Of a stretch of DNA of 64,000 bases, positions 4,026-25,747 are shown piece by piece. Position numbers and translations under genes: made by a program. Every line of letters begins with the position of its first letter. Position 1 is the stretch's first letter. Below the pieces are notes generated by a model. It ran no database searches. It was not told where the DNA came from and was given only the letters and a program-made list of their open reading frames with translations. Source of the stretch: Escherichia coli (GTDB lineage Bacteria; Pseudomonadota; Gammaproteobacteria; Enterobacterales; Enterobacteriaceae); assembly GCF_041248615.1 (NCBI RefSeq), contig NZ_CP158426.1; one strand, written 5' to 3'.

Positions 4026-4234
4026 AGACAAATCCTTCGCCAAAATTAAAGGGGCATCTGTAAAACGAGGGATTATGCGCGGCAAATAAGAAGTGCGGAA
4101 ATAGCGAAATGCAAAATTATAACCTGCTGCACATTTTATTTTTAAACGAATAAAATTTGGAATAAAGCAAGTCAGATAGAAGAAACAAAAAAGCAGAGTG
4201 TGAAACAGTAAGTTCACACTCTGCTTGAATTCAT

Positions 4235-16979: not shown

Positions 16980-19490
16980 ATGAGCCATCACCACACGCAC
17001 CTGGCGTACCCGTGGAACGCCCCGCTGCCGGTTATTGATCCTGAGACATTCGGCAGAGCATTACCGCAGAAGCCAACCGCATTACAACGGGCAATCCGTG
17101 ACTACCTCACCGAAGACATTCGCACTGAGGCCCGGCTGGATGAAGAAACCGTGGCCTTCCTGACAACCACGGACAAAGGTAAGCAAATTAATTCACACCT
17201 TCACCGGGACGAAGAGCGGCAGATAAGGCTGGATAAGCTGGCACGACACAGACGCGAAAATCCGCCAACGGCGGTATCGGAGGCGATAGCCGAACTTCGC
17301 ACCCTGCCCTCGTTTCTTGCCAGTGTGTTGATCCGTGATCTGGCACGACTGAACCGGAAACAGCAAAGTGCCCGCAGTGAAGGTGTAAAAAACAACAGCG
17401 CATACGTGGCCGATAATTTCGTTCGCCGTGGACTGCGTGCGCGCCTGAAACGTATTGAAAGGGTTAACGACCGCTTTGCAACGCCGGCATTCAAAACCAC
17501 CGTCGTGCGCCATCGCCTTGAAGAACTGCTCACACTGCCGCAACTCACCCGTGACGAAATCCAGCGCATCGCCACACTGACAGCCCAGGCATTCGCCGCA
17601 GAATTTGAACGCATATGTGATGAAGTTCTTGAACGGACAGGCAAGGATAATGACAGCCCGGTTATCTGGCTGCTGGCCTACCAGAAGGTGGCACGCACAG
17701 CCTTAATTCTGGGCATGGTCCCGCCATACTGGCCGGAACTCGAAATCAGGCACAACCGACGCACACCGCCGGACCCTGAACGGGTTCCGGGTGCGGTACT
17801 GCGCATCACCTGCGCGACCTGGTGGAACAACCAGTTACGCCACGTCGCCGATCTCTGGCGGGAGGAGTTACTGCGCGCCGCCGGCAGAGTGTCACGTAAA
17901 CAATCCCCCTATATCAGCCATGAGTCACTACTGGAGTTCCGCGAGAAGCGCCAGCGCACCTGTGACTTTCTCAAAAGCTGGGATATTGAAAACGAAGACG
18001 GCGAGCGCCTGAGTCTGGAGGACGTGTACTGGGCTGGCCTGGGTAATCCACGCAACCGCCGCAATGAAATGATGGTCTGCGTCAGAGGGATGGAGATGGT
18101 GGCCGAATTACGGGCTGACGTCGCATTCTTCATCACAGTAACCACCCCTTCCCGCTTTCACAGCGTGAACGAGAACGGCAGCCTGAACCCGAAATACAAC
18201 GGTGCCACAGTACGAGATGCCAGTGATTATCTGGTTTACGACTTCTTCGCAGCCGTAAGAAAAAAAATAAAAAAAGAGGGGCTGGGCTGGTACGGCGTGC
18301 GAACCGCTGAGCCACACCATGACGGCACGCCACACTGGCATATGCTGGTATTCACTTCCCCGGAGAACGCAGAGCGCATCATCGAAATTATGCGCGAAGC
18401 AGCAATTAAATCAGATCGCCACGAACTGGGGGACGATATTTCACCGCGCTTTAAATGCGAGAAGATAGACCCGGAAAAAGGCACACCGGCAAGCTATATC
18501 GCAACCTATATCGGTAAGAACCTGGACGCCAGCGCTTTCCACAACAATGATCCGAAAACCGGAAAACCTTACGTTGATGAGGAATCCGGGAAAACCATGG
18601 CGGAAACCGTGGAGAACGCCATTGCCTGGGCAAGCCTTCACCGCATCCGTCAGTTCCAGTTTTTCGGCATTCCGCCCCGCCAGGTATGGCGTGAACTCCG
18701 CCGCCTTGCAAGCCAGATGGAGCGCAACCCGGCATCACCGAAGCACCTCGATCATGACGATATTGACGCCATTATGGCTGCCGCAGATGTGGGATGTTTT
18801 GCCACCTACATCATGAAACAGGGTGGTGTGCTCATTCCGCGCAACCAGTATCTGGTCCGCACCGCATACGAAACCGCAGACGAAGCCAACGACTACGGTG
18901 AATTCCCTCAACGTATCTACGGAATCTGCGCCCCGTCGCTCGGAGAGCGGTACACCATATGCACCCATCCGGACGAGTGGAAACTGGTTAAAAAAGAAAC
19001 AACACCAGACAACCGCACGGGCGAGGGTTTTGACCTTCATGGCGACCCCGTCGCCCCTTGGACTCGTGGCAATAACTGTCCCCGGGATGAAAAAACAGAC
19101 AATCACGGACCAGAAAACAGGCAGGACCCCGGACGACTGACGCTTCCCGAAGAGAACCTGGAAAGCTGGCTGAATACGTTAAGCAGGGGCGATCGGAGAA
19201 AACTGCGTAATCAGATTAAAAATCAGCCGTCGGGCGCAAAAACCGGACAAAACGACACCACACCGGCATCTGACACCCCTGTAAGGGTGGGGATTGTCGT
19301 GCCTGCGGATACCGCGACGGACACGCAAATCGCCCGCGAACTTGATGCGCTGGGTGTGCAGTTGCCTGACGCGGCCATCATCTCCGTGCGTAACGGTGCC
19401 CGTGTGCGTCTGGATAACGGGGGAACAGCGTACTGGGATGAGTCAGCCCGTCACATCATCACAGAGCAGCCAGTGGAGGCGGGAGCATGA
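16980..19490 (+). CDS. rolling-circle replication initiator (P2 gpA-like)
   Basis: 836 aa; HUH-type motif HHDGTPHWHMLVF; size and position match P2 gene A. Confidence 0.9.
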   Translation: MSHHHTHLAYPWNAPLPVIDPETFGRALPQKPTALQRAIRDYLTEDIRTEARLDEETVAFLTTTDKGKQINSHLHRDEERQIRLDKLARHRRENPPTAVSEAIAELRTLPSFLASVLIRDLARLNRKQQSARSEGVKNNSAYVADNFVRRGLRARLKRIERVNDRFATPAFKTTVVRHRLEELLTLPQLTRDEIQRIATLTAQAFAAEFERICDEVLERTGKDNDSPVIWLLAYQKVARTALILGMVPPYWPELEIRHNRRTPPDPERVPGAVLRITCATWWNNQLRHVADLWREELLRAAGRVSRKQSPYISHESLLEFREKRQRTCDFLKSWDIENEDGERLSLEDVYWAGLGNPRNRRNEMMVCVRGMEMVAELRADVAFFITVTTPSRFHSVNENGSLNPKYNGATVRDASDYLVYDFFAAVRKKIKKEGLGWYGVRTAEPHHDGTPHWHMLVFTSPENAERIIEIMREAAIKSDRHELGDDISPRFKCEKIDPEKGTPASYIATYIGKNLDASAFHNNDPKTGKPYVDEESGKTMAETVENAIAWASLHRIRQFQFFGIPPRQVWRELRRLASQMERNPASPKHLDHDDIDAIMAAADVGCFATYIMKQGGVLIPRNQYLVRTAYETADEANDYGEFPQRIYGICAPSLGERYTICTHPDEWKLVKKETTPDNRTGEGFDLHGDPVAPWTRGNNCPRDEKTDNHGPENRQDPGRLTLPEENLESWLNTLSRGDRRKLRNQIKNQPSGAKTGQNDTTPASDTPVRVGIVVPADTATDTQIARELDALGVQLPDAAIISVRNGARVRLDNGGTAYWDESARHIITEQPVEAGA

Positions 19491-19918
19491 CGCGATTTTG
19501 CTGCACCATGCAGCGCCCACAGTTTGAGGCCATCATGCGCCAGCGTATGCCGGTGCTGACACTGTTCAGGCCTGCCACAAGGCCACAACCGGGCGACGAG
19601 CTGGAAATCACGATAGTCAGCCCCGATCGCACCACGGAGACCACCATCGCCGACATACTCAACAGGCGGCCGGGCAGCGAGAGCCATAGCTGGACTGTCG
19701 TCATTCGTCCGCGCCGTTCGCCGGAGGAACCGGAGCCGTGCACGCCTGCCGGGAAAATCATGCAGAGATATCACGAAGAGCGGACACGCAGGCACAACGG
19801 CGGACTGGCCAGAACACTGAACACAGTCAATCACAAGGCCGCGCTGGCGCGAATGGTCTTTTCACCACAACGCAATTCATTCGCCAGACCAGCACAGAAC
19901 GGGAGGAAACAACAGTGA
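19487..19918 (+). CDS. hypothetical protein (P2 orf91 position)
   Basis: 143 aa; ATG overlaps gpA stop (ATGA); SD GGAGG. Confidence 0.5.
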   Translation: MTRFCCTMQRPQFEAIMRQRMPVLTLFRPATRPQPGDELEITIVSPDRTTETTIADILNRRPGSESHSWTVVIRPRRSPEEPEPCTPAGKIMQRYHEERTRRHNGGLARTLNTVNHKAALARMVFSPQRNSFARPAQNGRKQQ

Positions 19919-20109
19919 GCAGAATATTACTTTTTCTGCTGTTTTTCGCGCCATTCGCACAATCAGCCACGCCGAACTGCGTAGCGAAAAAGAGCAACAC
20001 CGTTGTCATTGTCCAGTGTGATGACGGCACGGTAACAATCACCGACTCGAGCAAAGGAAGCGTCATTGTCTGCCGTAAAGAGAAACCCTGTCAGCGAACC
20101 GAACTTTGA
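19915..20109 (+). CDS. small secreted Cys-containing protein (signal peptide)
   Basis: GTG start overlapping upstream stop (GTGA), SD GGAGG; 64 aa, MSRILLFLLFFAPFAQS signal then 4 Cys. Confidence 0.5.
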   Translation: MSRILLFLLFFAPFAQSATPNCVAKKSNTVVIVQCDDGTVTITDSSKGSVIVCRKEKPCQRTEL

Positions 20110-20120
20110 AGGAAAAATAT

Positions 20121-20435
20121 ATGAACAGGAAACAGAAGCAGGAACTGAAAGGCTTCTTACGTAAAGAAATTGCCAGGCTGGAAGATGTGGAATCTCAGTC
20201 ATCAGATATTCCATTCGGAATGGATATCAACGACGCCTGTATGCTCCAGGTATACCGCATAGCTCAGGCTGCACTACAGGCAAAACCGTCAGATGGACTG
20301 GTTAGAGCAGTACGTTTCTATGAACTGGTAAAGCGTGAGAATCCGCCAGTCGAAACCGGAGCATGGCAAGACGCTGTTGACTGGGTGCTCAAAGAGGCTT
20401 GTCAGGTTGTAAACACTGGCATCAAAGGAGACTGA
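20121..20435 (+). CDS. hypothetical protein, cargo operon gene 1
   Basis: 104 aa from ATG with SD AAGGA (track uses upstream TTG at 20106). Confidence 0.55.
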   Translation: MNRKQKQELKGFLRKEIARLEDVESQSSDIPFGMDINDACMLQVYRIAQAALQAKPSDGLVRAVRFYELVKRENPPVETGAWQDAVDWVLKEACQVVNTGIKGD

Positions 20436-20436
20436 T

Positions 20437-20646
20437 ATGGCTATTGCCGCAAGTTACACCATGCATCTCTATTGTGATTGTCGCCAGTGTACAAATGGTA
20501 AATATCAAACGCCAGACTTCGGTGAATATATCGGTACGTCATGGACTGGCTGTGCAAAAGAGGCGCGTAAGGATGGCTGGCGAATAAGCAAAGACAAAAC
20601 TCGTGCTTTTGCGCCCGGGCATAAAGTTTTGAGGATTAACAAATGA
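20437..20646 (+). CDS. small Cys-rich protein, cargo operon gene 2
   Basis: 69 aa; SD AAGGAG; CDCRQC plus later Cys; 1-nt gap to gene 1. Confidence 0.55.
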   Translation: MAIAASYTMHLYCDCRQCTNGKYQTPDFGEYIGTSWTGCAKEARKDGWRISKDKTRAFAPGHKVLRINK

Positions 20647-21044
20647 CCACTATAACCAAAGAGCGACTACTGACAATCAGGCAGTGGCGCGAAACATACG
20701 GACCTGGTAGCAACGTTGTACTGCCAGCCGAAGAAGCGGAAAAACTGGCACGGATTGCTTTGGCATCGCTGGAAGCAAAACCAATAGGTGCTTTCCACAT
20801 TGCAGAACAGCAGGTCGATGGCACAAGTGACTACATCAAGGATGGGGAGTACCGCTTGCTGACATCTGAAGAACAAAAGATAGCCCAACTTTTAGGCGAT
20901 GCATGGAACCTGTATTTTACATTGCCAGTTGAGCATCCAATGGGTAGAGATGAATTTTGCCGGGCAATTCATCATTGCCAAAATATGGTGTTGGCACGCC
21001 CTGCCATCAGGGCGCTGGCCAGTAAGGGGCAAGGCTATAAATAG
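20643..21044 (+). CDS. hypothetical protein, cargo operon gene 3
   Basis: 133 aa; ATGA overlap with gene 2; followed by intrinsic terminator. Confidence 0.6.
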   Translation: MTTITKERLLTIRQWRETYGPGSNVVLPAEEAEKLARIALASLEAKPIGAFHIAEQQVDGTSDYIKDGEYRLLTSEEQKIAQLLGDAWNLYFTLPVEHPMGRDEFCRAIHHCQNMVLARPAIRALASKGQGYK

Positions 21045-21050
21045 ATGAGC

Positions 21051-21078
21051 AAAACGCCCTCCTCCAGGGCGTTTATTT
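21051..21078 (+). terminator. intrinsic terminator ending the 3-gene cargo operon
   Basis: stem AACGCCCT/AGGGCGTT, loop CCTCC, then T-rich tract. Confidence 0.5.
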
Positions 21079-21081
21079 CAA

Positions 21082-21108
21082 TGCACAATAGTGCACAAAT
21101 TTGCACAA
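21082..21108. promoter_or_regulatory. three TGCACAA direct repeats at 10-bp phase
   Basis: TGCACAA at 21082, 21092, 21102, one helical turn apart. Confidence 0.4.
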
Positions 21109-21534
21109 TTTTTTTGAACGACTTTTTGCCCTTCCGGCCCGTGTGGCGTCTGGATCCGTCGGGGATCCGTGCGTGCACGAAAAAAGGCCTTTTTCTGCGC
21201 GCAGGTGACGGGGGAACAGCCCGCGTTTCAGGGGGTAAATAGCATTCCCTGAACGATGTTGCAGCGACACAACAGAATGGCTGTATTTCTCACGCTGAGC
21301 GTAAAAAAGACGTAAAAGCTTGATTTGATGGGGGTGAAAGATAAGGCCGTCAAAATCGCACTGAGGCAGCGAGAATATGTCGTCAGAGTTGCGGGGTTGC
21401 GTAAGCATCCGCCCGGCGATGATGGCTACAAGGTTGGAGATGTTGTGAAATTATCTGAAGGAATAACCAGCTTGCAGGAGAACCCGGGCAAAGTCAGAAT
21501 AGCGGCAGGCATCAACTCAAAAGAGGATAATGTC

Positions 21535-21636
21535 ATGAGCCACTTTAATGATTTATGCCAGATCAATCGTGAAGCTGAAGAAAAACGCGCTGAGGCAGCT
21601 CAAATTTTGCGGGATGAAGCGGCAAGGCTGATTGAT
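21535..21636 (+). pseudogene. 5' part of cargo ORF interrupted by the IS21-family element
   Basis: ORF with SD AGAGGA runs into the IS left end; reading frame resumes in-frame at 24224; alternative start 21325. Confidence 0.6.
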
Positions 21637-21829
21637 TGCGTATTTTCATGAAAGGAGATCACTCAATAACTTCCATCGAGATCGGGTAATAACATTTGAA
21701 CAGATCGCTGAATAACATCGATGGAGATCACTTTTGACTCATTTTGTTATTCAGTGATCTCCATCAATGTTATTGGAACTTCACAGGTGTGTTGATCTGT
21801 ATCTTTTGCCATTCCGGTAAAGGATACCT

Positions 21830-23371
21830 ATGCCAACAGTTCCAATTTCTATGAGAAAACTTAAAGAAATTCTTAGGCTTAAATACGGTGTTGGACTCAG
21901 CCATCGACAAATTGGTCGTAGTCTTGCAATCTCCCCTTCCGTTGTATCCAGATATGCTAATCGGGCGGCTCAACTTGGCATAAAGCAGTGGCCCTTACCT
22001 ACAGGATGGGATGATACAAAACTAAAACATGCGTTCCTTCAGACCCAGGTTAAGATGAAGAAGCACTCTCTGCCTGACTGGGCTACAGTACACCGGGAAC
22101 TGCGTAATAAATGCGTGACGCTGCAGCTACTCTGGGAAGAATACTGTGAGCGTAATCCAGGCGGTTTTTACAGCTATAACCATTACTGCCGGATGTACCG
22201 TGAATGGCTCAAAACCACTTCACCATCAATGCGTCAGGTACATAAAGCTGGCGAAAAACTTTTCGTTGATTACTGTGGACCTACCGTTGGCGTTACCGAC
22301 CCTGAGACCGGAGAAATAAGAACTGCTCAGGTCATCGTAGCTGTTCTCGGGGCATCAAGTTACACATGGGCAGAGGCCACCTGGTCTCAGCAGCTTGAAG
22401 ACTGGGTGATGAGTCATGTTCGCTGCTTCCAGTGGTTGGGTGGCGTTCCTGAACTTGTTGTTCCGGACAATCTGAAAAGCGCCACATCCAGGGCATGTAA
22501 GTATGATCCTGACGTTAACCCTACCTACCAGCAGATGCTTGAGCATTATAATGTCGCAGTTTTGCCTGCGCGGCCACGTAAACCGAAAGATAAAGCCAAA
22601 GCTGAAGTTGGCGTTCAGGTTGTTGAACGCTGGATCATGGCCCGAATCAGGCATGAGATCTTCTACAGCCTTGCATCGCTTAATCAGCGCATTCGGGAGT
22701 TGCTGGAAAGACTGAATAACAAAATAATGCAGAAGTTGGGTTATTCACGTGCAGAACTCTTCATCCAGCTTGATAAACCCGCACTGAAGCCTCTTCCTGA
22801 AGCCAGTTACAGTTACACCCTGGTGAAGAAAGTCAGAGTTCATGCCGATTACCACGTGGAAATCGACAAACATTACTACTCGGTTCCATGTTCGCTGTTA
22901 GGCCAGCAACTGGAAGCATGGATCTCCGGAGAACTGGTAAGACTCTTCAATCAGGGGCAGGAGGTTGCTGTGCACCCGCGCAAGCGTACTTATGGCTACA
23001 GTACCCGCAACGAGCACATGCCTGAAGCTCATCGACAGCATGCCACCTGGACGCCAGAGCGTCTTCTGGAATGGGCGGGGCACATAGGCAGTGAAACTCA
23101 TAGTTATGTGCTTCATATACTGAACTCTCGTCCACATCCGGAACAAAGCTATCGCTTCTGCCTTGGACTCCTGAACCTTCATAAAAAATACAGTAAAGCC
23201 AGACTTAATGCAGCATGTGCAAGAGCTCTGAAAACAAAGGTATGGCGTCTGTCAGGTATTAAATCGATCCTGGAAAAAGGTCTGGATAAACAACCTGTTC
23301 AGGATCCAAAACCAGATCTGTTATCCACGATGGAACACGAAAACGTACGCGGCAGTGAGTATTACCACTGA
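21830..23371 (+). CDS. istA: IS21-family transposase IstA
   Basis: 513 aa; N-terminal HTH; DDE-type integrase core; followed by istB. Confidence 0.9.
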   Translation: MPTVPISMRKLKEILRLKYGVGLSHRQIGRSLAISPSVVSRYANRAAQLGIKQWPLPTGWDDTKLKHAFLQTQVKMKKHSLPDWATVHRELRNKCVTLQLLWEEYCERNPGGFYSYNHYCRMYREWLKTTSPSMRQVHKAGEKLFVDYCGPTVGVTDPETGEIRTAQVIVAVLGASSYTWAEATWSQQLEDWVMSHVRCFQWLGGVPELVVPDNLKSATSRACKYDPDVNPTYQQMLEHYNVAVLPARPRKPKDKAKAEVGVQVVERWIMARIRHEIFYSLASLNQRIRELLERLNNKIMQKLGYSRAELFIQLDKPALKPLPEASYSYTLVKKVRVHADYHVEIDKHYYSVPCSLLGQQLEAWISGELVRLFNQGQEVAVHPRKRTYGYSTRNEHMPEAHRQHATWTPERLLEWAGHIGSETHSYVLHILNSRPHPEQSYRFCLGLLNLHKKYSKARLNAACARALKTKVWRLSGIKSILEKGLDKQPVQDPKPDLLSTMEHENVRGSEYYH

Positions 23372-23382
23372 TACGGGATCCA

Positions 23383-24132
23383 ATGATGAATCATCTTTAC
23401 GAACAACTGACCGCACTTAAACTCACCGGCTTCCGTGATGCGCTTAAAAAGCAACTTGCTCAGCCGGGCACATACCAGGAGCTGGGCTTCGAAGAACGCC
23501 TGTCATTACTGACAGCAGAAGAACTAACCTGCCGTGAAAACAGGAAGGCAGAGCGTCTGATCAAACATGCACGGTTCAGACTTAATGCTGAGTTATCAAA
23601 GCTGGATTATCGTAACAATAGAGGGCTGGACAGGGCCCTCATCCGTTCACTCAGTCAGGGAAACTGGTTAACCCTGAAACAAAATATTTTACTGACCGGG
23701 GCCACCGGCAGCGGTAAAACGTTCCTGGCATGTGCACTTGGTCATAATGCCTGCCGACAGGGATACAAGGTCTACTATTATCGCCTTAAAGCGCTGATGG
23801 AACAGTGCTATCAGGGGCATGCTGATGGAAGATACAGCAAACTTTTGACCAGGCTGAATAATAGCGATCTGCTGCTTCTGGATGACTGGGGGCTGGAACC
23901 TCTCTCATCAGAACAGCGTAGCGACCTGCTGGAAATAGTGGATCTGATGTACCAACGAGGCTCAATCATCGTAGTGAGCCAGTTGCCGGTGGAAAACTGG
24001 TACAAAATGATCGGAGACTCCACACATGCGGATGCCATCCTAGATCGACTGGTTCATGGCAGTATCAAGATCGAACTTAAAGGAGAATCAATGCGGAAAA
24101 TACAATCTCCGTTGACCGAAGGAGATCAGTGA
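23383..24132 (+). CDS. istB: IS21-family ATP-binding helper IstB
   Basis: 249 aa; Walker A GATGSGKT. Confidence 0.9.
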   Translation: MMNHLYEQLTALKLTGFRDALKKQLAQPGTYQELGFEERLSLLTAEELTCRENRKAERLIKHARFRLNAELSKLDYRNNRGLDRALIRSLSQGNWLTLKQNILLTGATGSGKTFLACALGHNACRQGYKVYYYRLKALMEQCYQGHADGRYSKLLTRLNNSDLLLLDDWGLEPLSSEQRSDLLEIVDLMYQRGSIIVVSQLPVENWYKMIGDSTHADAILDRLVHGSIKIELKGESMRKIQSPLTEGDQ

Positions 24133-24223
24133 AGGTAATTTAAAAACGGTTCTGTGAAAGTGACACGAACCGATCTCCATCGATGTTACTCACCGATCTC
24201 CTTCACGGTAATACGCAATTGAT

Positions 24224-24625
24224 TTCTATGAAGAATGGCTGGGGCTTCCATCCATGTACTGGGAAGACGATGATGGCGACCTGCACCGCTACGTGGAGAC
24301 AGGCTTGCCATGTAAGACAGCGGCGGATTTTAGTCCTCTTTCAGTCCACAATATCGCATCTGCACCAGACAATATTTTCCGCATGGCCGTGCGAACCTGG
24401 GTTAAGTCATCTGACAGCAGCTACCCGGTAAGCGTGGTTATTGCACTTGAATTATATTCAGTAGATGCGGAACGGGTGTCTCTGAGAGTCCGGGTGGAAG
24501 ACGATATTTCTGTTCGCGTATTTATCAATAAACCCAGCGAAGAAGCCTGGGGCGATGTTGTTATGCACATGAAAAAGCACATCGCTAATCACCTGAAAAA
24601 GCGAGCGCCATCAGCACTTCGTTAA
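24224..24625 (+). pseudogene. 3' part of cargo ORF interrupted by the IS21-family element
   Basis: in-frame continuation of 21535-21636 once IS and one ATTGAT copy are removed; ends 66 bp before gpQ stop. Confidence 0.6.
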
Positions 24626-24691
24626 GCAGAGCTGGAGAGTCGGGGCATAAATTTTTTATGCCCCGGCGAAGCAGCAGACAAGCGAAGCGCG

Positions 24692-25747
24692 TCAGGATAT
24701 GGGCTGGGTGTCTAACAGTGCGTAAGGGTTAAAACGGATCACCTCTTCGCCCAGCCAGTCGTTGACGTGTTTCATTGCTTCCATGACGGGCATCAGTTCG
24801 TTAATGGCAAACACACGGGCTGCCTTCTCCACATCCCCGAATGACCCCTTCTCACCCGGCATGGCCCCCATCAGCTGCGGCGGTACACGGTGCACGGACA
24901 GCACATCATCACGCGATGCAGCCTTGACGTTCATGAACTCATCCTTTGCGGTGATTTGCTGAAACGGCAAAATCTGTACGCCATCCTTACCACCTCCCGC
25001 CGCGTGGATGAGCAGATTTTTAAACGCCCCGCCACCACGCGCGCTTTGCAGTGTTTCCCGCAGTTTTTCCATGCTTTCACGGTCAACCTGCGCCGCACCG
25101 ATGTAGACAATACAGCCCGCGTGTGAGCCGTTATCGTAGTAGAGCTTGCGGAAGATATCGGCGGAATGTGACAGGCTGGCAGACAGCAGGCCGCCCAGGT
25201 AATCCGGCATCCCGTAAATCTCCTGGTTGATATCAGGATTCATCAGGTGGCATATCGTCCCCTCACGAAAGCGGTACTCTTCCTGTCCTTCCTGTATATA
25301 CCACCATGATTTCATATCGCTGCCACGTCGCATGTATTTCGCCAGCGCCCGGCGCAGGGCCAGCGGTTCGCCAAGCATGTTGCGCCGCAGCTCAAGACAG
25401 GCATTACCGAACACAAACCAGTCCATCGCCACCCCGGCGAACTCCTGGCGGGACAGCAGAGGATGTGGAATATAGCAGCCCAGCAGCACATTACGTTTGA
25501 AGCTGAGCGCCGACTGGTGCCAGGACGTCTGGCGGGCAGCCCGTGCCAGTCCGTACCAGTCAACGGGCGTTTCAAACCACCGCCCGTTGTCGGCGCAGTA
25601 CATGCTGTCCAGCAGGTCGGCCCCTGACAGCCGGTAAGGTCCTTCAAACGTGAAGGCACTCAGTGTCGGGTCGCTTCGCAGGGAATCCGCAAGGCTGCCC
25701 TGCGCTGCGCGGGCGTTCGTACGTCGTTGTTTATTTTTTCTGCTCAT
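24692..25747 (-). CDS. portal protein (P2 gpQ-like)
   Basis: 351 aa; start overlaps terminase stop; position next to gpP. Confidence 0.85.
   Translation of the reverse strand: MSRKNKQRRTNARAAQGSLADSLRSDPTLSAFTFEGPYRLSGADLLDSMYCADNGRWFETPVDWYGLARAARQTSWHQSALSFKRNVLLGCYIPHPLLSRQEFAGVAMDWFVFGNACLELRRNMLGEPLALRRALAKYMRRGSDMKSWWYIQEGQEEYRFREGTICHLMNPDINQEIYGMPDYLGGLLSASLSHSADIFRKLYYDNGSHAGCIVYIGAAQVDRESMEKLRETLQSARGGGAFKNLLIHAAGGGKDGVQILPFQQITAKDEFMNVKAASRDDVLSVHRVPPQLMGAMPGEKGSFGDVEKAARVFAINELMPVMEAMKHVNDWLGEEVIRFNPYALLDTQPIS

Follow-up and report, generated by a model that had tools for sequence, protein, structure and literature searches.

Introduction

In bacteriophage P2 the genes old, tin and orf91 form transcription units of their own, convergent to gene A. 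The gpA-gpQ interval of P2-like prophages has been described as a hotspot of diversity and defence (Rousset et al., 2022; PMC9122126), and one of the systems validated there is Rst_3HP, a three-gene system from Escherichia coli E1114 that is active against phage P1 (PMC9122126). In lambdoid phages, the genes of the exo-xis region are collectively among the earliest transcribed and affect the lysis-lysogeny decision (PMC8614690). One of them, ea22, is itself among the earliest transcribed genes and influences the same decision (PMC10834534). We have analyzed a stretch of 64,000 nucleotides (nt) of an E. coli genome that contains a P2-like prophage (RefSeq assembly GCF_041248615.1, contig NZ_CP158426.1; this whole stretch is referred to as the window). 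Specifically, we describe the five small genes found at 19487-21044, directly after the gene of the replication endonuclease gpA, and thus inside the hotspot interval that goes from gpA to the portal gene gpQ.

Alignments to related prophages indicate that the last three of these genes, which code for proteins of 104, 69 and 133 amino acids (aa) and are called here the trio, are a lambdoid cassette spliced into one older gene, giving two chimeras around the 69-aa gene. On balance, we lean towards reading the region 19487-21044 as a set of exchangeable and non-essential early genes, in which the trio came from an in-frame cassette replacement and the products act on host or phage factors.

Origin of the three-gene arrangement

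The genes of the trio are all on the + strand. The 104-aa gene is located at 20121-20435, the 69-aa gene (20437-20646) begins one base past its stop codon, and the 133-aa gene (20643-21044) overlaps the end of the 69-aa gene by an ATGA. The products of the first and the third are chimeric. Both start with an N-terminal module (N-module) of the same type, ending in the linker RIAQAALQAKP in the 104-aa protein (N-module at 20121-20288) and in RIALASLEAKP in the 133-aa protein. A protein of 135 aa that is common in E. coli (WP_001080496, here P0099) combines the N-module of the 104-aa protein with the C-terminal domain (C-domain) of the 133-aa protein. In this 135-aa gene the N-module ends in the linker RIAQAALQ(A/T)KP and is followed by a three-helix C-domain. 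The proteins P0275 and P0296 are, like P0099, chimeric relatives.

In the P88-type prophage L098 the gene order is gpA, ParM, ParR, a single 135-aa gene and the portal gene. The window aligns to this prophage on both sides of the trio. Positions 20109-20289 align to L098 3274-3455, which is the 5' half of the 135-aa gene, at 87% identity, and positions 20854-21458 align to L098 3501-4106, the 3' half with the downstream backbone, at 91% identity. Between them, 564 bp on the + strand of the window (20290-20853) stand in place of 45 bp of the 135-aa gene, and both junctions are in frame. The left junction is found directly past the codons of ALQAKP and the right one at the microhomology ACCGCTTGCT. 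These 564 bp, delimited by the alignment to L098 as the imported lambdoid cassette, comprise the C-domain of the 104-aa gene (20289-20435 in that gene), the 69-aa gene from start to stop and, from the 133-aa gene, its N-module with the spacer. The tight junctions between the genes (TGAnATG and ATGA) have evidently arrived ready-made in the cassette. The three-gene form appears to be the derived one, because the 133-aa protein is without the '...YDYFTDTAC' start that is usual in the family of its C-domain.

The cassette in other phages

Parts of the cassette were found, at 89-97% DNA identity, in Shiga toxin (Stx)-converting and other lambdoid phages, in P1-like phages (RCS47, D6 and PH444) and in phiV10-like phages. 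The sites that they occupy in lambdoid phages are the exo-xis, ea and nin regions. The orf7 of phage VT2-Sakai is the 69-aa gene, 90% identical, and is placed in the exo-xis region just downstream of ea22 with orf8 between them. In vB_EcoM-606R7 the 69-aa gene is located in the nin region, while the Stx2 phage 86 carries a close homologue in the lambdoid early accessory region. The N-module of the 133-aa protein is also carried by DUF551 proteins of the lambdoid exo-xis region.

We have located the breakpoints of the homology in 80 viral contigs with a copy of the 69-aa gene that is at least 93% identical. On the left side, 70 of the 80 break at 20419-20425, the ribosome-binding site of the 69-aa gene, and six do so in a linker at 20289-20297. 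On the right side the commonest point (43 contigs) is 20646-20665, where the stop of the 69-aa gene meets the MTTIT start of the next one, followed by the linker at 20774-20789 (25 contigs) and by 20848-20850 (8 contigs). The exchange points are thus few and recurrent; one is the ribosome-binding site that serves the 69-aa gene, another the MTTIT start of the gene after it, and the others are the '...AL(E/Q)A(E/K)P' linkers. When the 80 contigs are taken together with the annotated loci and the window (86 loci), the gene after the 69-aa gene begins with MTT... and an ATGA overlap in 77 of them, and the proteins encoded downstream of the 69-aa gene amount to 59 distinct ones, with sizes of 79-449 aa. 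They are made of shuffled segments with near-invariant linkers (LASLEAEP, APPVPVVP, GNSPVTPDGWISCSERMP and HWMPLPEPPQE). In most of the loci L007-L086 this downstream gene begins near position 4204. In some loci it is this gene that ends in the C-domain found in the 104-aa protein of the window.

Such a pattern of exchange would be the expected product of relaxed homologous recombination among temperate phages, and the recurrent linker breakpoints provide a clear case of in-frame domain shuffling between phage families. A previous inspection of the same DNA from its letters and open reading frames (ORFs), the sequence-only reading, had named the compact operon structure, together with the position, as grounds for regarding the genes as candidates for a small module. 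The junctions are internal to the imported cassette, and since they are common to hundreds of unrelated phages they are better seen as a trait of a promiscuous cassette, and are no proof of a co-adapted operon.

Prevalence and coding character of the genes

The components of the trio were searched in 5,426 complete E. coli genomes. The 104-aa gene is present at full length in 93 genomes and in any part, mostly the C-domain alone, in 736. The region of the 69-aa gene appears in about 1,681 and the C-domain of the 133-aa gene in 112. The full trio was found in four of the 80 viral contigs carrying the 69-aa gene, and in six of the 86 loci. P88 has only the first gene of the trio, and Stx phages have the second one with a different third gene. 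The sequence-only reading had proposed the genes as candidates for a small defence, anti-defence or exclusion module. With a mosaic origin, discordant prevalence and so few complete examples, the trio shows no conservation as a unit, and a coherent module is not supported; what stands is the placement as accessory cargo of the gpA-gpQ interval. The case is mainly a warning. Genes packed with overlaps into an 'operon', even within a defence hotspot, may owe this arrangement to chance recombination of cassettes and need not form a system; here it is the domain history that decides.

The entire interval is found as identical DNA in 21 of the complete genomes, and the whole locus in only 21-22. 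All five exact proteins are present on 360 to more than 1,000 public contigs, always labelled 'hypothetical'. We have compared the genes with alleles from other loci by the ratio of nonsynonymous to synonymous polymorphism (pN/pS). The values were 0.10 for the first gene of the array (coding for a protein of 143 aa), 0.15 and 0.36 for the two halves of the 104-aa gene, 0.13 for the 69-aa gene (35 alleles) and 0.22 for the N-module of the 133-aa gene. Since the ratio was between 0.10 and 0.36 in every gene or module that could be compared, these genes are real coding sequence. The G+C content falls from 0.56-0.60 in gpA and the 143-aa gene to 0.45-0.49 downstream.

Domain composition of the encoded proteins

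Neither Pfam nor NCBIfam gave a match for any of the five proteins. PADLOC gave nothing credible for them (the best match had an E value of 0.016 and 12 bits), and the PDB sequence search with the 104-, 69- and 133-aa proteins was also empty, so the earlier statement that no recognisable motif is present was upheld. The sole family matches of the five proteins are PHROG families of unknown function, and a literature search on the PHROG identifiers returned no papers. A scan of 19000-22000 against Rfam found no RNA family.

The 69-aa protein belongs to phrog_926 and is the conserved core of the cassette. It is basic, and its conserved Cys/His pattern together with the net charge of +6 makes it probable that it binds zinc. 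In the family, C13 is invariant (100% of the members), H/C62 nearly so (98%), C18 is conserved in 87%, and about 92% have a Cys at either 57 or 59; the copy of the window has C13, C15, C18, C39 and H62. Members are also found in virulent phages, such as Magnus and other Ackermannviridae, the T1-like AHP42 and the Klebsiella phage GP-1, and there the homologues sit within arrays of small early genes. Besides numerous virulent phages, about 31% of the complete E. coli genomes carry phrog_926; being under purifying selection and matching no known fold, the family is a fair target for functional study.

The 104-aa protein matches phrog_660 with its N-terminal region and phrog_26213 with its C-terminal part. 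Its C-domain also ends other proteins, Ead/Ea22-like ones among them, and some of these belong to PF13935. The Ead_Ea22 family itself (PF13935) had no Pfam match in the 104-aa or in the 133-aa protein, even at E <= 10.

In the 133-aa protein the N-terminal half matches phrog_660, phrog_60 and phrog_3323 and the C-terminal half phrog_13916. Residues 1-70 are 92-94% identical to the N-termini of hundreds of prophage proteins annotated as 'DUF551 domain-containing', and most of the 3,640 matches to the whole protein cover only about 54% of the query. By Pfam, the DUF551 domain (PF04448, ending in ...HWMPLPEPP) is not present, and residues 72-133 form a three-helix domain in its place. This C-domain occurs elsewhere as stand-alone proteins of 62-86 aa in prophages of Hafnia, Enterobacter, Pectobacterium and Yersinia. 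For Yersinia, the prophages that were examined have its gene between the lysis genes and the gene of the small terminase. In the AlphaFold2 model of the 133-aa protein, two helices at the N-terminus are followed by a disordered part at residues 46-74 and by three C-terminal helices; the latter, with a predicted local distance difference test score (pLDDT) of 70-84, are the only confident part of a model with a mean of 58. Foldseek found no structural match for this model (the best PDB match had E = 3).

Two other assignments were considered for this C-domain and rejected. The label 'DNA ligase' given to phrog_13916 is unsupported, the family being a helical protein of 62-86 aa. A misalignment by MAFFT hinted that the C-domain could be a diverged N-module, and hhalign gave this a probability of 0.4%. 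As for the annotation of the gene, the Prokaryotic Genome Annotation Pipeline (PGAP) calls only its first 135 bp (L001 7157-7291) and leaves its last ~62 codons unannotated, while other pipelines call an ORF of 62 aa from an internal TTG, and the uninterrupted 133-aa frame is not represented in RefSeq for the genomes that carry it.

Expression of the gene array

The gpA gene (16980-19490, + strand, 836 aa) is the last core gene of the early operon; it is an ORF that RefSeq annotates as 'replication endonuclease' in identical prophages. The ATG of the 143-aa gene (19487-19918, + strand) overlaps the gpA stop as ATGA. Then, the gene of a 64-aa protein (19915-20109, + strand) starts with a GTG that overlaps the stop of the 143-aa gene, with a GGGAGG 8 nt upstream. 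A Shine-Dalgarno sequence precedes each of the five genes, and neighbours overlap or abut. Scanning the + strand from 19300 to 21900 with the sigma-70 consensus, no promoter match was obtained. Given the lack of a promoter match and the overlap with gpA and with each other, the five genes would be co-expressed with gpA on infection or induction, and the arrangement makes them most likely the tail of the early replication operon.

A G+C-rich hairpin of 9 bp is found on the + strand at 21052-21074, starting 8 nt past the last stop. It is the sole strong hairpin of the gene array and comes after its fifth gene, with a folding free energy of -21.3 kcal/mol (z = -4.4 versus shuffled sequences). The U tract that follows is weak (UUUAUUUC), and for this reason a simple terminator scan missed the hairpin. 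It probably terminates the early operon. In its observations the sequence-only reading was right, as the small packed ORFs that it recorded on the + strand after gpA are where it had placed them and the hairpin at their 3' end is present. The hairpin is part of a P2-like backbone block, 21030-21458, which is 87-91% identical in P88, CREC-591 and L098. This non-coding block is kept in spite of differing flanking cargo, and part of the packaging site, or some other backbone function, may reside in it. The cos core of P2/P4 (GGCGAGGCGGGGAAAGCAC, with up to 3 mismatches) was not found in the window.

Possible role of the genes

If the region is a set of exchangeable early genes, as we favour, they would be transcribed and translated together with gpA after infection or induction and would be silent in the quiescent lysogen. 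The products would be early proteins without an essential function, binding to factors of the host or the phage, by analogy with Ea22, Orf63 and Orf61 of lambda and Stx phages, which tilt the lysis-lysogeny decision. Among them, the basic 69-aa protein could be the conserved effector or a nucleic-acid binder, and the modular proteins would show variable C-terminal binding domains on a helical N-module.

Several points weigh against this interpretation. With regard to the origin of the trio, that there was an insertion and not a deletion in the P88 lineage is a direction that we infer. The promoter search was only a consensus scan, which might miss a weak or non-canonical promoter, and the genes could then be expressed in the lysogen. 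In the 69-aa protein, the usual third zinc ligand of the family (C57 or C59) is absent in the window copy, which has Ala at 57 and 59. The early role in modulating the host is suggested by position and by the analogy with Ea22 and Orf63, not by homologues. The 133-aa gene is annotated by PGAP in RefSeq over its first 135 bp only, as a pseudogene 'missing C-terminus'. Finally, strain GF60 has an insertion sequence (IS) within the 104-aa gene, which shows that the prophage can at least do without the genes.

Among the alternatives, the one that survives best is an anti-defence or host-takeover function, by which one or more small early proteins would inhibit an immune system of the host or a housekeeping target. 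The candidates would be the 69-aa zinc protein and the variable C-domains on conserved N-modules, the shuffling of C-domains being then the mark of an arms race. The position in the early operon with no promoter match of their own is in line with such a role, and so is the occurrence of the 69-aa family among the small early genes of virulent Ackermannviridae, T1-like and Klebsiella phages. The same can be said of the large diversity of the downstream partner, with its 59 proteins of shuffled domains in 86 loci, and of the small size of the proteins, which are without an enzymatic motif. However, neutral mosaicism at the linkers explains the shuffling equally well, and we consider this function rather unlikely. 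A more speculative variant, to which we would give a small chance, is a cassette-exchange platform. It would consist of a constant helical N-module with the '...RIALASLEA(E/K)P' linker, the 69-aa zinc protein, always encoded next to it with translational coupling and possibly bound to it, and C-terminal 'warheads' that can be swapped and are aimed at immune proteins or other targets in the host. Were this true, lambdoid, P1-like and P2-like phages would be swapping the warheads of the platform by recombination at linkers, and the window would represent a capture into a P2-type replication operon.

A prophage defence or superinfection exclusion system that guards the lysogen, as old, tin and fun of P2 do, with the 64-aa protein in the envelope and the trio as the system, seems improbable to us. 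The location is the published gpA-gpQ hotspot, in which many loci carry anti-phage systems, and the exact six-gene arrangement is among the 'hypothetical' loci of the same study (PMC9122126); besides, the secreted mini-protein keeps its Cys residues in another P2-like lineage. These points speak in favour of such a system. On the other hand, none of the proteins has a PADLOC match, and the genes are coupled to gpA without a promoter match. The trio, as seen above, is a recombinant of unrelated pieces with discordant prevalence, and IS insertions are tolerated. It was also compared with Rst_3HP ('hp+hp+hp', anti-P1), whose validated proteins have 336, 356 and 228 aa; this identification was rejected, as no resemblance was seen, by length and inspection only. 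Lastly, the 69-aa family has members in strictly virulent phages; as these form no lysogens, there would be none to guard, and on this account a role in guarding the lysogen is disfavoured.

Equally hard to believe is that the chimeric 104-aa and 133-aa genes are decaying by-products of recombination, the 69-aa gene being the only functional one, if any is. The PGAP fragment, the absence of the DUF551 domain that normally follows the N-module of the 133-aa protein and the low overall score of its model (pLDDT 58) would agree with decay. Against it, neither junction breaks the frame, and the ORFs are uninterrupted, with the same sequence in 21 complete genomes and a presence on no fewer than 360 public contigs. 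Each module has a pN/pS well under 1, the model of the 133-aa protein shows a folded C-domain, which other genera keep as a stand-alone protein, and architectures with an N-module and a short C-domain are common.

The first two genes of the array and the downstream cargo

The 143-aa and 64-aa genes occupy slots that are separate from the trio. The 143-aa protein is basic (net charge +11) and matches phrog_14984 over its full length (E = 6e-82), and the G+C content of its gene, 60%, is like that of the backbone. The gene was absent from the phage collection searched. It was found in 23 E. coli genomes, each time attached to this gpA. In the prophage of strain E7-1N7 (L095), gpA and the 143-aa gene are kept at 94% identity and the cargo downstream is different. 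We examined the possibility that the protein is a diverged positional homologue of P2 orf91 (ASCH-like) and discarded it, since BLASTP produced no alignment and Pfam no ASCH domain. Two antisense ORFs of 127 and 100 aa are found over the gene (19451-19834, - strand). They are taken to be by-products of composition (G+C 0.60, and 0.69 at third codon positions) and not genes.

The 64-aa protein begins with (M)SR-ILLFLLFFAPFA-QSA. By inspection, this has the layout of a Sec-type signal peptide, with a positively charged n-region, (M)SR, a hydrophobic h-region, ILLFLLFFAPFA, and the small-x-small cleavage motif AQS/A, so that the signal-peptide-like N-terminus and the four Cys recorded earlier are there. 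Inspection also showed no L-x-x-C lipobox before Cys22. The protein matches phrog_20764 and phrog_11462, of unknown function in both cases. A homologue that is 72% identical, with the signal peptide and the four Cys kept, is located after ParM/ParR in P88-like prophages (L103). In E7-1N7 the slot is taken by an unrelated hydrophobic protein of 55 aa with two predicted transmembrane segments, the breakpoints being at 19931 and 20107. It is followed in that strain (L095 5429-6396) by the N-module of the 104-aa type (N104) with a different short C-terminus, a DUF7446 gene and an Ead/Ea22-like pseudogene. The 64-aa gene thus behaves as an exchangeable one-gene cassette, and small proteins directed to the envelope seem to be preferred at the position that follows the 143-aa gene. 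The 64-aa product, an independent cassette from the trio, would be exported to the periplasm, where its four Cys would form disulfides.

Past the backbone block there is another cargo gene, of phrog_5091 (~167 aa, E = 3e-52 over residues 69-235). It is on the + strand and is split in the window into two pieces, 21532-21637 and 24218-24625, by an IS21-family element of 2.58 kb (21638-24217) with istA at 21830-23371, istB at 23383-24132 and the target-site duplication ATTGATT. Strain SCU-115 has the gene in one piece, and P88-like prophages lack it. PADLOC, NCBIfam and Pfam gave nothing usable for the downstream ORF of 236 aa. We regard this gene as stand-alone cargo of the hotspot type, placed in the prophage independently. 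A perfect hairpin (GGGGCATAAATTTTTTATGCCCC, 24636-24666) is located between its end and the convergent portal gene gpQ (24692-25747, - strand), which is the far end of the gpA-gpQ interval, and it looks like a bidirectional terminator. The insertion in GF60 mentioned above (L096, NZ_CP172185.1, 3862-6169) is an ISSso4, also of the IS21 family, in the opposite orientation and in the 5' part of the 104-aa gene. There are thus two independent IS21-type insertions within ~1.5 kb of the cargo region, which suggests either a preferred target or the mere dispensability of the genes.

Comparison with described systems

The exact arrangement of the window is listed in Table S5A of the hotspot survey, for example in NZ_CP033635, as six hypothetical proteins (PMC9122126). 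It is not found among the validated systems of Table S2A, nor in the part of Table S2B examined (PMC9122126), and no homology to any validated hotspot system was detected. The cargo of P2 itself (old, tin and orf91) occupies the same interval, and its content varies among relatives as it does here. However, the genes of the window that are next to gpA are co-directional with it, translationally coupled to it and without a promoter match, which sets them apart from old, tin and orf91.

The P88-type prophages (Xuanwuvirus) carry an array formed by ParM, ParR, in some cases the secreted mini-protein, a ClpX-type zinc-finger protein and a gene of the N104 type. They share with the window the gene of the N104 module, at 87-94% DNA identity, the block with the terminator and backbone at 21030-21458, and the secreted mini-protein with four Cys. 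Some members already have the same trio of 104-aa, 69-aa and third gene. The differences are nevertheless considerable. In gpA (836 aa in the window) the central segment of the gene aligns at only ~70% DNA identity; the window is without the ParM/ParR and ClpX-type zinc-finger genes and has the lineage-specific 143-aa gene instead; and the commonest form found in the P88 lineage is the single 135-aa gene, versus the three of the window. The ClpX-type protein of these prophages has a C4 zinc finger and 110-115 aa (L103 3195-3542; L003 4686-5018). It is encoded just upstream of the N104-type gene in L003, and between the secreted mini-protein and later small genes in L103, and it could be a ClpX mimic or adaptor.

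The closest known kind is the mosaic set of early accessory genes of lambdoid phages (exo-xis, ea and nin). The exo-xis or 'ea' region of lambdoid and Stx phages, with ea22, orf60a, orf61, orf63, orf73 and the Stx-specific ORFs next to ea22, shares actual DNA with the window, and the domain mosaicism found here resembles that of the Ea22 variants (PMC10834534). The exo-xis genes are early, non-essential and of unknown mechanism, and those of the window would be so too. The products that have been studied, those of ea22, orf63, orf61 and orf60a, are not homologues of the proteins of the window. The two sets also differ in their setting, since the exo-xis genes belong to the lambdoid pL operon and those of the window end the gpA operon of a P2-like phage. 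The gpA-gpQ interval of P2-like prophages would hold, then, a second kind of cargo besides the defence genes with transcription of their own on which discussion usually centres, namely small early genes that are joined to the replication operon and come from the exo-xis pool of lambdoid phages.

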